Below, in pieces: positions 3,001-6,000 of a stretch of DNA of 30,835 bases; the stretch's first letter is position 1; each line of letters starts with the position of its first letter. The DNA is from Candidatus Micrarchaeaceae archaeon (lineage in GTDB: Archaea > Micrarchaeota > Micrarchaeia > Micrarchaeales > Micrarchaeaceae), in the NCBI GenBank assembly GCA_050013715.1, contig JBEKES010000006.1, positions 1 to 30,835 on the forward strand, read 5' to 3'. The position numbers were made by a program.

Positions 3001-6000
3001 GAGATTTAAACAAGAGAGATATTAAAAACGCATTAAAAATTGGAATTATAAGAATAGGTATGATTCAATCAGATCATATACATCAACTTTCATTATCAGG
3101 AGAAAATGAACTTGTGATATATTTACCAATATTAAGATATTCGGAAGAGTTAAACTCGTATTTCGGAATTACACCACAAGAACTTAGAGAGGTATTGATT
3201 GATGGTGTAGTTGGTATATTAAGATTTGGAGACGCTCGTTCAGCACAAATTATTGCTACGGTTGCAAACTTGAGCAACGAAGAATTAGGTGCTGGATTAA
3301 AGAGGGCAGAGTCTGATAAAACCATCAAGCTTAGAAGTGAGTGATACGCTTCTTTCCATAATGAAGTAGTAATGTGTCAAATGACATACAATGCCATACA
3401 AAGGGAAGTTGGTATCACGATACCAGTTCTCGGCGAGGGCGGACTTCGACGTCATTTCGACTGTAAGAGGGAGTGATACACGGTTCAATCTCTTACCTTT
3501 TCGAAAAGGCACATATAAATATCTAATAAAACAGAGTATTTTGAGTGAGTAAATGACAACAAAAAATTATCCATTGGTAAAAGATACGGATTACAAATTA
3601 ACAAATCTTTCACAGTTGTTCGAAGTCCCAAAAACTGAGAATGTGGTTGTTATACATCATAGAGATTCACTTTTTGTACTAAAAAGGATAAGCAGCACTA
3701 TGTTTTGGGAAACCAACGTACTTAGAACTTAACAAATTAGTTTTATCTTCATAAAGATTAGCGGAATAAACAGTTTCTTATAGGGAAGTTACAAATATGA
3801 TACTCAAATAATTAAGTTCTATATAAGCTCCATAAGAAATCAATAAGGGCTTCAATCCGACGGATTAAATATCGGCGAGGGCGTCTTCCTTTTTGTAAAG
3901 CCCCCACCTAAAGAAATAAGACATGTCATATCGAAGACAGAGAGTTCAAATCCCATACTGGGCGCATGCTATTAGGGTTCAAATCCTAATTAAAAGAGTA
4001 AAACTTCAGATATTTAATACCTTAATTCTTAATTTAGATTATGAAATCCAAGATAAAGTCATTTTTAATTTTTAAAAATAGCAAAGTAAGGAAAATTCCT
4101 AAAGAATTCCAATCTGACGATAATCGTAATCCAGAAAGTTTAGTTGCATACTTCTTGAAAGAATTTACTAAAAAAGGAGATACTGTTTTTGACCCGTTTA
4201 CAGGTTTAGGTACAACTTTGATAGTAAGTGAACAGATGGGTAGAATTCCATTTGGTATAGAATTAGATAAAAAGAGGACAAATTATGTTAAATCTCAAAT
4301 AAAAAATAAACAAAATTTAATTAATGGTAATTCAAAAAATTTAAGTTCATATAAATTACCTTTATTTGATTTCTGTTTTACCTCACCATTATACACGCAT
4401 AATAATGGTAAACCTTACAAACGATATTTAAAGAATATATATGAAATTTTTGCTCAGCTAAAAAACCTAATGAAAAAGAATTCTTACTTAGTTATTGAAG
4501 TATCTAACCTAAAAGATAAAGATGTTACGACCCTTGCATGGGATATAGAAAAAGAAGTTTCTAAAGTTCTCCATTTTGAAGGTGAAATAGTTATTGGTTG
4601 GAAAGGAAAAGATAGTTATGACGATGATGGAAGTTATGGCTATGGATACGACCATAGTTACTGTCTTATCTTTAGAAATGTAAAATAATTATAAATCCTT
4701 TACCTTTATCTAAGACAAAGAGTAGGTGTTAAACATATGATTAAAGAACGGCGAGGGCGGACTTAGACGTGTCGCAGTCGGAGAACGCAGGCTTCAAAGC
4801 CATAAAAAAACACAATATAAATATCTAATAAAACAAAATATAATTGTGATAAAAATGTCTGAATATATAAAATCTCAACGTACTGAAAGAACTCAATTAC
4901 CAGTGCATACGAGTTCAGAAACTTTTACAGTAAAAGATCAGAAGTATGTGGTTCTTAGATATCCTGAAAATAAAGGACCAAATTTAAAACAGGCAATAGA
5001 GATAGAAAACAGCATTCCAGGAAAGAAGTTGCTTACAGGACAAGAAGCAAGAGAAATAATAAGCAATGATGAATTAAAAGTCGCATTTGAACATATATTG
5101 AAAATAGGCGAATGGACATATGTTCGTGATTCGGGAACTGAATCGCAGTCTCGAGCCGCTTACCTAATTTTCCTTAGATTCCGTTGTGGTGTGCACTTCG
5201 ACAGTCTGGATAGTATTGCTTCTCCAGTGGTAATTTTAAAAGAAACCAGCAAAGACATCGTCGCACCAAAAGATCCCGAACTGCTTAGAAAAACAGAAGC
5301 ATGAGCCCAAAATAATTAATACTAATCTTTACATAACTTTACATAAAAGTATGTAGTTTAGGGATTTGGCCACAAAATTAGCGGAATTAACACGTTTCTT
5401 ATATGAGTGTAGCAGATTTGTTACGAAAATAATTAAGTTTCATATAAGCTCCATAAGAAATTAATAAAGGCTTCAATCCGACGAATTGAATATCGGCGAG
5501 GGCGAACTTCGACCCACCGGTGGTAAAAAGCAAACAGTTAAATAGTTTAACTGTTCAACTGTTATACTGTGATTAATATGGAAGAAGAATTAGTTAAAAT
5601 GTCTGAAAAAGGCCAATTGGTAGTGCCAAGAAAAATACGACAAAAGGAAGGCTTCAAAAACAGTGACAGATTCATTGCAATAGGTGTTAAAGATGGCGTT
5701 CTATTCAAAAAGATAAATATACCGAAGGTCAAGATAGAATTTGAATCGTTATCTAAAGAGATACAAGCCCATTTCAAAAAAGAAGGCATCACAAAAGCAG
5801 ATGTCGCAGAGGCAGTTAAATGGGCAAGAGAAAGATAGTACTTGATACAAACATACTTATCTCAGCTCTTGGCTGGGAAGGTAATCTAAGCAAGATACTG
5901 GATAAAGTTGTGGATGGAGAGCTTGAGTTTTTCATATCTTATGATCAATTCAATGAGTTCTTAAGGGTTATTAACTACCCGAGATTGAAATTTAGCGAAG

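Follow-up and report, generated by a model that had tools for sequence, protein, structure and literature searches.

Short leaders opening with a Shine–Dalgarno motif are predicted at phased TATA promoters, mainly of accessory genes, in a micrarchaeal genome

The genome of Candidatus Micrarchaeota archaeon (G000, 93% complete) appears to use an ordinary archaeal core promoter which, with a Shine–Dalgarno (SD) motif placed at the transcription start, would give mRNA leaders of 8–10 nt. We consider it probable that such leaders are a hallmark of accessory genes and that core genes mostly have longer ones. The window analysed is a stretch of 30,835 nt from contig JBEKES010000006.1; its features, among them the example promoter of gene g00288, are collected in Table 1.

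The survey's finding was that TATA octamers are phased 38 nt before start codons, and our own gene calls reproduced it. Among 487 ATG genes with at least 60 nt of upstream gap, the octamers began 37, 38 and 39 nt before the ATG in 10, 18 and 14 cases, against 0–4 elsewhere. A check that made no use of a gene caller covered 550 octamer occurrences on both strands; GTGAT followed 29, 30 and 31 nt on in 13, 31 and 10 cases, with 0–6 cases per position over the rest of the 8–94 range. A position-blind EM search of 487–570 upstream regions returned AWA(G/C)(G/C)-TWTAWATA-TYT, an 8-bp TATA box with an A-rich BRE, the core of which typically lies 38–39 nt before the start codon and 30–31 nt before GTG(AT). 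The pattern TWTAWATA-N21-23-GTG-N5-6-ATG had 64 matches in the genome, the adjacent N24-26 bin 14 and seven other 3-nt spacer bins 1–6. Alignment of 84 promoters revealed a promoter-proximal element, with A at core+19 in 64% and at core+21 in 81%. Judged by their sequence, these promoters appear to be of the archaeal TBP/TFB type, with TATA box and BRE, an A/T element near −10 and, about 30 nt from where the TATA box begins, a pyrimidine/purine initiator. The spacing agrees with that of P. furiosus, whose TATA box is placed at −30 to −23 in the consulted part of PMC6640164. The g00288 promoter, given by the survey as an example, was located as described (ATAAATAT at 4817, GTGAT at 4846–4850, ATG at 4855), but its motif score is only 3.0 because its BRE fits the consensus poorly.

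Table 1. Promoter and cassette features in the window
Feature	Position	Strand	Basis or remark
Tandem cassette array behind tRNA-Arg(GCG); 12 exact 10-mer tRNA-end copies at 66, 2246, 3431, 3873, 4749, 5494, 6298, 6945, 8966, 9814, 11025, 11714; units 442–2180 bp	66..11724	+	sequence
Sister promoter, TATA 40 nt before ATG 2362	2322..2364	+	same family
Sister promoter, 39 nt before ATG 3553; 96% identical over 54 nt to promoter at 9072	3514..3555	+	alignment
Copy of the final 11 nt of tRNA-Arg(GCG), bounding the g00288 cassette on the left	4749..4759	+	sequence match
Left arm of g00288 cassette: GACG...GTCG motif, T-arm-like hairpin GGCTTCAAAGCC	4760..4801	+	similar arms precede relatives' integrase genes
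BRE position, CACAA, poor against genome consensus AWA(G/C)(G/C)	4811..4815	+	motif score 3.0
TATA core TATAAATA of g00288 promoter, 39 nt before ATG	4816..4823	+	matches position-blind motif TWTAWATA
TYT element right behind TATA core	4824..4826	+	conserved motif columns
Proximal element C-A-A-A, core+18 to +21, about −12 to −9 if +1 = core+30	4834..4837	+	A-rich columns in 84 aligned promoters
Initiator step T/G, predicted transcription start G4846	4845..4846	+	offset 30 from core
Putative SD GTGAT, predicted first five mRNA bases; GTG in frame with ATG	4846..4850	+	complements AUCAC of 16S tail of five congeners; same motif inside operons
g00288, 149-aa ORF, cassette cargo	4855..5304	+	without Pfam family
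Right end of g00288 cassette: GG-hairpin, then next tRNA-end copy (5494–5504)	5469..5504	+	sequence
Sister promoter of ORF 9111	9072..9113	+	same family
Sister promoter of ORF 9920; public contigs carry the stretch before a different sequence	9881..9922	+	same family
Putative leaderless promoter; ATG 12556 lies 29 nt past the start of the TATA core, with a pyrimidine at −1 and without SD	12527..12558	+	sequence
Putative leaderless promoter; ATG 24528 lies 30 nt past the start of the TATA core, with a pyrimidine at −1 and without SD	24498..24530	+	sequence

The distance from TATA box to transcription start, which the survey had borrowed from other archaea, is now backed from within the genome by a leaderless class at 29–31 nt, a pyrimidine–purine step at offset 29/30 and the A-rich element at core+19/+21. 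Of 185 strong promoters, 16 have a start codon 29–31 nt after the TATA start, which is ATG in every case; a pyrimidine stands at −1 in 14 of these 16 genes versus 45 of the 101 in the 36–41-nt band. The same two distance peaks were found in the relatives G007 (7 and 23 of 74) and G080 (19 and 18 of 66, with a pyrimidine at −1 in 17/19). Where the G of the motif lies at offset 30, a pyrimidine precedes it in 25/31 cases, compared with 8/38 at offset 31 and 27/131 inside operons (Fisher 8e-7 and 6e-10). Given these two internal rulers, the leaderless class and the initiator pyrimidine, leaders of 8–10 nt opening at or just before GUGAU are therefore likely. The tRNA genes were dropped as a further ruler, as their best TATA matches scatter (8/12 with a score >3 at 31–39 nt; 32 tRNAs). 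RNase P RNA is present in the genome, and the frequent T at −1 of tRNAs may reflect a preference of RNase P.

The survey's leader of about 9 nt, beginning at the ribosome-binding motif, thus fits the phased class as a prediction of about 8–10 nt, but does not extend to the other strong promoters. Only 101/185 have the 36–41 layout, so the leaders are not uniform. Nor does the organism seem to do without leaderless and long ones: 16/185 fall in the leaderless class and 62/185 have the TATA box 42–75 nt ahead of the start codon, where shuffled sequence gives 1.1 and 6.8. Some of the 62 may stem from a wrongly called start or serve a divergent neighbour. The proposed opening GGUGAU is rare: GGTG opens 4/101 predicted transcripts, which would begin instead with GUGAU, AGUGA or GAGUGA.

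The motif itself had been described as G(G)TGAT, 3–4 nt before the start codon, and its shorter form stood up. Of 1125 GTGAT occurrences, 132 lay 3 nt and 52 lay 4 nt before an ATG (other spacings 9–32); GGTGAT was hardly enriched (10/215 at spacer 3). The consensus reads (G/A)GTGAT with a weak first position and departs from GGDGRD, and a search for GGAGG enrichment at the gene starts of this genome found none. The motif keeps a fixed distance from the start codon in operon-internal genes too, where GTG occupies −8 to −10 in 131/278; this strict GTG test replaced a 'has SD' flag that was saturated (525/570). SD counts made on our gene calls are partly circular because the start calls rely on an SD model, in which TATA distance is unused. 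A further G precedes GTG in 19/44 long-leader and 40/131 internal genes, versus 2/38 at offsets 29–30. GUGAU is complementary to AUCAC of the relatives' 16S tail, the genome's own 16S gene being absent from the assembly. Among the 28 16S ends of relatives that were listed, 27 (five congeners and 22 others) read GATCACCT, and only one extends to CCTCC; a genomic end may differ from the RNA end, as in S. solfataricus, where CCTCA becomes CCUCC (PMC11698992). The predicted SD duplex is weak (−4.3 to −5.1 kcal/mol), and the short-leader layout is likely in agreement with a shortened anti-SD in the relatives. A GUG micro-ORF with ATGA-overlap coupling was considered and rejected for want of enrichment (8/31).

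Two observations concern the transcription and translation machinery. TBP is encoded as two single-repeat genes, the second of which has a conserved ACG start, picked out by the SD register in 10/10 family-level genomes with enough sequence. An eS26-like gene occurs in 106/121 Micrarchaeota.

The compact layout seems to mark mainly accessory, recently acquired genes, many of whose promoters look like related copies. Homologues in the sampled relatives were found for 11/101 minimal-leader genes versus 26/62 long-leader genes (p=1e-5), the other 90/101 minimal-leader promoters driving genes without one, and Pfam matches for 19/87 versus 32/54. The TATA boxes of Rpo4, L21e, S19e, L1, aIF5A, MCM and SufB lie 44–72 nt upstream and, going by TATA distance, ribosomal and replication genes would mostly have longer leaders. 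A motif trained on conserved genes alone placed 14/50 at 36–41 and 30/50 at 42–75. Of the pooled loci around the TBP gene, the nine closest yielded 38/50 matches at 42–75, which fits long leaders at core genes; repeating the same neighbourhood, the pooled loci were left out of the genome-wide shares. The gene-class bias was absent in the small samples of G041 (3/7 vs 11/25), which is weakly phased (7/40), and G080 (4/18 vs 8/23).

Proteins of the 36–41 class are mostly unrelated among themselves (6 alignments among 101). Among the promoters, 87 spacer pairs were at least 16/21 identical, about 6 being expected, and the largest family comprised 24/114, none heading a conserved gene. Collapsing related spacers left 74 clusters of 114, and the peak was unchanged. 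In 120 other genomes of the phylum the pattern occurred 650 times versus 135 with a shifted spacer; the true spacing gave more matches in 101 genomes, fewer in 5 and the same number in 14. Its 64 matches here compare with a median of 5 and a maximum of 26 in these relatives.

The g00288 promoter heads one cassette in an array of 13 units without integrase; the tRNA-Arg(GCG) gene itself belongs to another contig, C29, the end of which shares sequence with the beginning of the window. The cargo comprises a DDE transposase, a DNA methylase, a MazE-like+PIN pair, a ParE-like gene, ankyrin, glyoxalase-like and unknown proteins. Positions 4749–4841 are 88% identical to 9814–9906, and 4739–4857 are 76% identical to 2236–2364. 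At 12 loci, which together cover 35 kb, exact copies of a tRNA end follow the tRNA they match, in its orientation; there are 34 of these, and 28 copies in the rest of the genome. Minimal-leader promoters were found in or at tRNA arrays in 19/101 cases versus 2/62 of the long ones, about 80% of the former being away from any detected array. No integrase came out of searches of the genome with the families PF00589 and PF16795 or of tblastn with 26 integrases from relatives; the only matches overlapped tRNA genes. In relatives, an integrase directly follows the tRNA gene in 17/20 regions examined; in G005 one stands behind tRNA-Arg(GCG), with two core copies downstream. Cassette excision joints over 1–13000 were absent from four DNA contig sets, all low-depth. 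The 24 runs listed for this sequence included no RNA run, which speaks neither for nor against the predicted starts.

We propose that the series BRE, TWTAWATA, TYT, A-rich element and initiator would start transcription 29–30 nt downstream of the position where the TATA core begins. Because the SD GUGA(U) sits at the start, the mRNA would open with GUGAU, or 1–2 purines earlier, and reach AUG after 8–10 nt. The 30S subunit may then bind through a 4–5-bp duplex with AUCAC of the 16S tail, the CCUCC part being degenerate, in a nearly fixed register with G at −8. About a fifth of the compact promoters would head cassettes that tyrosine integrases, still present in relatives, have piled up behind tRNA genes, and related copies appear to precede other lineage-specific genes. 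Core genes would use the same elements and SD with leaders mostly of roughly 12–45 nt, and about 9% of strong promoters would be leaderless. A more far-reaching version seems doubtful, though worth considering: a portable module of about 45 nt (TATA, proximal element, 5′-terminal GUGAU) might head tRNA-targeted cassettes and be reused before dozens of captured genes, its mRNAs beginning with the SD. Their 5′-triphosphate GUGAU would pair with the truncated 16S tail on an eS26-bearing 30S subunit, in a mode between SD-led and leaderless.

Other readings of the layout were weighed against this proposal. Uniform leaders of about 9 nt opening with GGUGAU throughout the organism, without leaderless or long ones, are very unlikely: the 36–41 band is the largest class, survives clustering and includes conserved genes, but the leaderless and long classes far exceed the shuffles, the genes named above have their TATA boxes at 44–72, 30/50 conserved genes fall at 42–75, and GGTG seldom opens a predicted transcript. 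The phasing could also be a by-product of one promoter spread by mobile cassettes, as the similar spacers, the large family and the excess of matches over relatives would allow, or the split TBP could shift the start and lengthen the leaders. We regard this as the least probable reading, since the peak remains when each cluster counts only once and recurs across the phylum. Moreover, the leaderless class sets the distance at the usual 29–30 nt, and the split TBP seems not to shift the start because the TATA-to-start distance has internal support.

The remaining readings concern the GTG itself. That transcripts are leaderless and translated from a 5′-terminal GUG is highly unlikely, even though the predicted +1 is often the G of GTG, the GTG of g00288 is in frame (it would add MIK) and S. 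solfataricus has a GUG-initiated leaderless mRNA (PMC11698992). Behind the TATA core the out-of-frame GTG-N5-ATG outnumbers the in-frame N6 form by 51 to 13, a stop separates GTG from ATG in 12/84 in-frame cases genome-wide, the motif is equally present inside operons, and all 16 leaderless genes start with ATG. Somewhat less improbable, but still unlikely, is that GTGAT is an initiator element and translation SD-independent, possibly aided by eS26. GTGAT would occupy +1 to +5, and the T. onnurineus study, in the part consulted, interprets GAGAT at +2 to +6 as an initiator (PMC5316973); Micrarchaeota have the eS26-like protein, and in S. solfataricus the SD duplex faces competition from eS26 (PMC11698992). 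However, in operon-internal and long-leader genes the motif tracks the start codon, not the TATA box; it is complementary to the conserved stretch of the 16S tail, and it is extended by a G at its 5′ end in mRNAs long enough to include one. GTGAT may nevertheless act in both roles, as initiator and SD.

The predicted SD-led layout resembles known systems; the comparison with Thermococcales and Sulfolobales draws on papers, our own pipeline having covered Micrarchaeota genomes. According to the consulted parts of the reports on T. onnurineus (PMC5316973), T. kodakarensis (PMC4247193) and P. furiosus (PMC6640164), mapped SD leaders have medians of 12, 16 and 13 nt (11 nt in orthologue pairs), with a leaderless minority of 12–14%. 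As far as these parts extend, the shared features are the series BRE, TATA, proximal element and pyrimidine/purine start, a TATA box between −30 and −23, leaders so short that they hold little beyond the SD, and the leaderless minority. They also point to differences: the modal leader predicted here is 8–10 nt, at or below the 8-nt limit termed leaderless in PMC4247193, the SD is GUGA(U) instead of GGDGRD, the 16S CCUCC is degenerate, and the layout is concentrated in accessory genes. The examined portion of PMC2699501 puts the TATA 3′ edge of Methanocaldococcus jannaschii 23±2 nt from the start, as here. It reports 9-nt leaders in 4/134 transcripts, whereas the predicted short-leader layout is the largest class in our genome; SD-bearing 9-nt leaders were thus already mapped there, since 2/4 contain an RBS. 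The short SD-led leader is therefore already known, and the genome presents a tighter variant of the Thermococcales layout.

With the leaderless mRNAs of Sulfolobales, haloarchaea and N. equitans (PMC6028130, PMC1847833, PMC11698992) the minority of 16/185 is in keeping, whereas the main class lies 9–10 nt further from the TATA box and has an SD; like Sulfolobales, the genome has an eS26-like gene. As in the cis-mobilizable elements and tandem accretions at tRNA 3′ ends covered by the consulted part of PMC5704250, direct copies of tRNA ends bound integrase-less units, and in relatives the same tRNA has a tyrosine integrase next to it. Compared with the elements described there, the units are only 0.4–2.2 kb, with 13 in one row and 12 tRNA loci; like ends accompany different tRNA cores (Arg, Asp), and many units open with a common promoter. 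Our literature search on Micrarchaeota promoters, SD use, tRNA arrays, split TBP and eS26 found nothing in open-licence main texts, and the supplements of PMC11698992 and PMC6028130 may list Micrarchaeota.

As far as that search shows, this is the first account, drawn from sequence, of the signals that start transcription and translation in this DPANN phylum, with a basic design nevertheless close to the mapped Thermococcales leaders. It suggests that 8–10 nt ahead of the start codon, often counted as no leader at all, can be an SD and nothing more, and it corrects gene starts (false GTG starts, one ACG start). The length of a minimal SD-led leader becomes testable, as does its fit with eS26, which was reported as excluding the SD duplex and as limited to TACK and Asgard archaea. 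The link to tRNA cassette arrays suggests how a 1-Mb symbiont genome may express captured genes.

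Re-reading of the window sequence confirmed the coordinates of the survey's example promoter, upstream of g00288 (see the table), and peat metagenome contigs X5 (4653-5202) and X6 (4374-4861), from four peat runs compared with the window, span it with zero differences, which excludes an assembly error at this locus. Phasing of the TATA motif was also recovered without gene calls: GTGAT lay 29-31 nt after 54 of 550 octamers, against 0-6 per other distance. Counted by itself, GTGAT was followed by ATG after 3 nt in 132 cases and 4 nt in 52. With an independent gene caller (1068 genes), octamers started 37, 38 and 39 nt upstream in 10, 18 and 14 of 487 genes. 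The genome comprises 977 kb in 72 contigs (38% GC, 93% complete; 16S gene absent from the assembly); one of its TBP genes has its closest relatives, at 90-93% identity, in Candidatus Micrarchaeota or Micrarchaeaceae.

A position-blind motif search recovered the consensus AWA(G/C)(G/C)-TWTAWATA-TYT, with A peaks 19 and 21 nt past the core start. Start codons were picked using the coding score together with an SD model, for which operon-internal genes alone (278) served as the training set. Upstream gaps of 60 nt or more precede 570 genes, and a strong promoter was found for 185 of these; the other 385 had no match above threshold and were left out of the classes. The layout, claimed to be uniform, is not: measured from the first base of the TATA core to the start codon, 16 promoters lie at 27-31 nt, 101 at 36-41, 62 at 42-75 and six elsewhere, against 1.1, 1.4 and 6.8 in shuffled controls for the three bands. 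The proposed minimal leader thus holds for the phased class (36-41 nt) but not for the organism as a whole, which also has leaderless and long-leader promoters.

The survey had borrowed its distance from TATA box to transcription start; two rulers internal to the genome now replace it. The 16 genes of the first band, tyrosyl-tRNA synthetase among them, lie at 29-31 nt. ATG is the start codon of every one, and in 14 the base at -1 is a pyrimidine, as it is for 45 of 101 promoters of the main band; the 16 genes are leaderless, with the A of ATG as +1. When the G of GTG lies at core+30, the base before it is a pyrimidine in 25 of 31 instances; at core+31 this falls to 8 of 38, with a pyrimidine-purine step one base earlier in 16 of 38, and operon-internal GTG has the pyrimidine in 27 of 131. 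Together these rulers place +1 at core+29/30. The same distance is given for P. furiosus (TATA at -30 to -23; PMC6640164) and an agreeing one for M. jannaschii (PMC2699501). With +1 set to the nearest pyrimidine-purine step, modelled leaders would measure 8, 9 and 10 nt in 32, 24 and 20 of the 101 phased genes, 11-12 nt in 12 and 6-7 nt in nine, with none in four. The commonest predicted 5' ends are GTGA (28), AGTG (15), GAGT (9) and GTGG (7), with GGTG in only four of 101. Genome-wide, tRNA genes mostly have pyrimidine-A-T or N-A-T directly upstream (CAT, TAT or AAT in 18 of 32), which may reflect either very short leaders or a preference of RNase P.

Of the motif originally given as G(G)TGAT, GTGA(T) stands, whereas GGTGAT, like GGAGG, is hardly enriched upstream of starts. 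Operon-internal genes carry GTG at -8 to -10 in 131 of 278 cases, and because its position relative to the start codon is kept inside operons, GTGAT is a translation signal. GTG could instead be the start codon itself. Behind a TATA core it is out of frame in 51 cases versus 13 in frame, which rules this out for the main class; at in-frame genes such as g00288 GTG may serve as start codon. ORF finders are misled by GTG-ATN-NNN-ATG into false GTG starts and MIxM N-termini (MIKM at 4846). An extra G precedes GTG in 19 of 44 long-leader and 40 of 131 operon-internal genes and in 2 of 38 at offsets 29-30; its scarcity in the minimal class, as against genes whose mRNA extends 5', fits that base being untranscribed there.

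The GUGAU/AUCAC duplex was computed at -4.3 to -5.1 kcal/mol. At the 16S 3' ends of relatives, which were read from DNA and may differ in the rRNA, as in S. solfataricus, where a genomic CCTCA is matured to CCUCC (PMC11698992), GATCACCT is terminal in 27 of the 28 matches listed and one continues to CCTCC. The tail of five congeners is ATCACCTCGA. Of 27 relatives (L004-L033, L114), 26 have no CCTCC anti-SD in their 16S DNA, where GATCACCT is followed by CG, CA or A; many also contain AAGGCATAAC or AAGGTATAAC. Other archaea have AAGTCGTAAC in their place.

The classes differ in gene content. Among the 162 of 185 genes in fetched regions (first 450 residues scanned), a Pfam match was found for 19 of 87 at 36-41 nt, 32 of 54 at 42 nt or more, 8 of 15 leaderless genes and 5 of 6 in other bands. 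The long class includes Rpo4, L21e, S19e, L1, aIF5A, MCM and SufB; the minimal class has FtsZ, thioredoxin and a DnaJ-domain protein, and otherwise chiefly unknown proteins. Homologues occurred for 11 of 101 minimal-leader versus 26 of 62 long-leader genes (p=1e-5), in a sample of 1.2 Mb from three relatives; as this covers about 40% of each genome, the share without homologue is an upper bound. A motif trained on 202 conserved genes gave 50 matches, two leaderless, 14 at 36-41 nt and 30 at 42-75 nt; core genes, too, use the minimal layout, as a minority. The relative G007 repeats the bias (8 of 23 vs 24 of 34), which was not seen in the small samples from G041 (strain A_DKE), where phasing was slight (7 of 40), or G080. 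The exact pattern occurred 650 times in 120 other genomes of the phylum, versus 135 with a shifted spacer, a median of five per genome against 64 here (kin, not independent, with G003 included). The minimal-leader layout is phylum-wide, and its frequency in this genome is unusually high.

Coordinates of the features discussed (C, contigs of this genome; L, fetched loci)
Feature	Location	Strand	Details
Example promoter of g00288	window 4816-4855		TATA core 4816-4823; GTGAT 4846-4850; ATG 4855
GTG-ATN-NNN-ATG sites	window 4846-4854, 5569; L182 3172		and similar ones
tRNA-Arg(GCG) array	window 66-11724		12 exact 10-mer copies, single strand
Integrase-less arrays	window 66-11724; contigs C1, C2, C3, C5, C7, C9, C31, C33, C47, C70		behind 12 tRNA genes
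tRNA-end copies per tRNA			Arg 13; Asn, Cys, Ser, Leu 3 each; Phe, Ala 2; others 1
eS26-like zinc-finger protein	C1:6210-6443 (L182:2482-2715)	-	77 aa; PF01283
TBP gene 1	C37:5575-5913 (L001:1441-1779)	+	single repeat, 112 aa
TBP gene 2	C11 about 17927-18298 (L002)	-	single repeat, about 123 aa
Candidate ACG start, TBP gene 2	L002:1816-1826	-	also L278-L285, L290

The example promoter is the head of a cassette: an 11-base copy of the end of tRNA-Arg(GCG) stops 57 bases upstream of its TATA core. Contig C29, which holds this tRNA gene and one further copy, overlaps the window start, giving 13 units, of which the 11 inside the window measure 442-2180 bp. At its right end a unit carries GG(G), a variable and often self-complementary stretch of 20-25 bases, and the tRNA-end core. 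Several units open with a GACG..GTCG motif, a hairpin resembling a T-arm, and a promoter belonging to a single family. Their cargo (24 ORFs scanned) comprises toxin-antitoxin-like pairs, a methylase, an IS, ankyrin and unknown proteins, similar in kind to that of integrons. Of 32 tRNA loci tested, 12 (35 kb) are followed by exact copies of the end of their own tRNA; such copies number 34, against 28 elsewhere. In or at arrays lay 19 of 101 minimal-leader and 2 of 62 long-leader promoters. Spacers resemble each other beyond chance, since 87 pairs are at least 16/21 identical versus about six expected; the largest family covers 24 of 114 promoters, none upstream of a conserved gene, and the 74 clusters left after grouping retain the 38-39 peak. 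The right end at 4690-4759 is 87.5% identical to a tRNA-Asp array end (C31:1134-1205) with a different core. The promoter-SD-ATG stretch at 9886-9927 is joined in public contigs X3, X6 and X11 to other downstream sequence, absent from this assembly. At both 18361-19063 and 24117-24818 a small winged-helix gene stands divergent to a small zinc-finger-like gene; the two pairs are similar and, by eye, appear paralogous.

No tyrosine integrase was detected in the genome with PF00589, PF16795 or tblastn using the integrases of 26 relatives; one is present in 22 of 40 relatives, and of 20 regions selected from 47 matches, 17 have the gene immediately after a tRNA. Downstream of tRNA-Arg(GCG) in the congener G005 lie an integrase, a core copy (at +6.2 kb) and a unit of 0.9 kb whose end is similar. 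Integrases directly behind tRNA genes in relatives (L145-L164) come in two size classes, with open frames of about 315 aa in one and 400-470 aa in the other; copies left by the small class tend to include the whole T-arm, those of the large class to have GGG-N-core ends as in the window. We infer that the arrays arose by tandem accretion of non-autonomous units, much like the CIMEs accreted at tRNA genes (PMC5704250).

Short SD-led leaders are of a known kind, since they have been mapped in Thermococcales (median 11-16 nt; leaderless mRNAs 12-14%; PMC5316973, PMC4247193, PMC6640164), with GAGAT at +2 to +6 in T. onnurineus (PMC5316973), and in M. jannaschii (two 9-nt leaders with RBS; PMC2699501); those described here, by contrast, are modelled from sequence, with a mode of 8-10 nt. 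Within the literature searched, what appears new is the occurrence of such leaders in a DPANN phylum, the predicted modal length of 8-10 nt, an SD apparently shortened to GUGA(U), placed right at the 5' end and matching a degenerate 16S tail, and the tie of the minimal layout to accessory genes and cassettes.

All 54 PDB matches of the eS26-like protein are eS26, and of 121 Micrarchaeota genomes, 106 have a PF01283 match, which exceeds the cut-off in 84. A 2025 structure paper (PMC11698992) describes eS26 as confined to TACK and Asgard archaea and as incompatible with an SD duplex, whereas the eS26-like gene occurs here in Micrarchaeota. The two TBP genes are 52% identical, each with YEPEQFPG and F-K-N-G-K motifs; one repeat was present in all 81 TBP ORFs examined at Micrarchaeota loci, and 15 of 21 relatives searched had two or more TBP matches. 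In this genome the open N-terminal frame of the second gene contains no ATG, GTG or TTG. All 10 family-level genomes with sufficient sequence (G003 included) have an ACG 8-9 nt past the G of the GTG motif, and in two of four genomes of another family ATG takes that SD register. ACG is probably the conserved start of this gene. Both the eS26-like gene and the split TBP bear on the mechanism.
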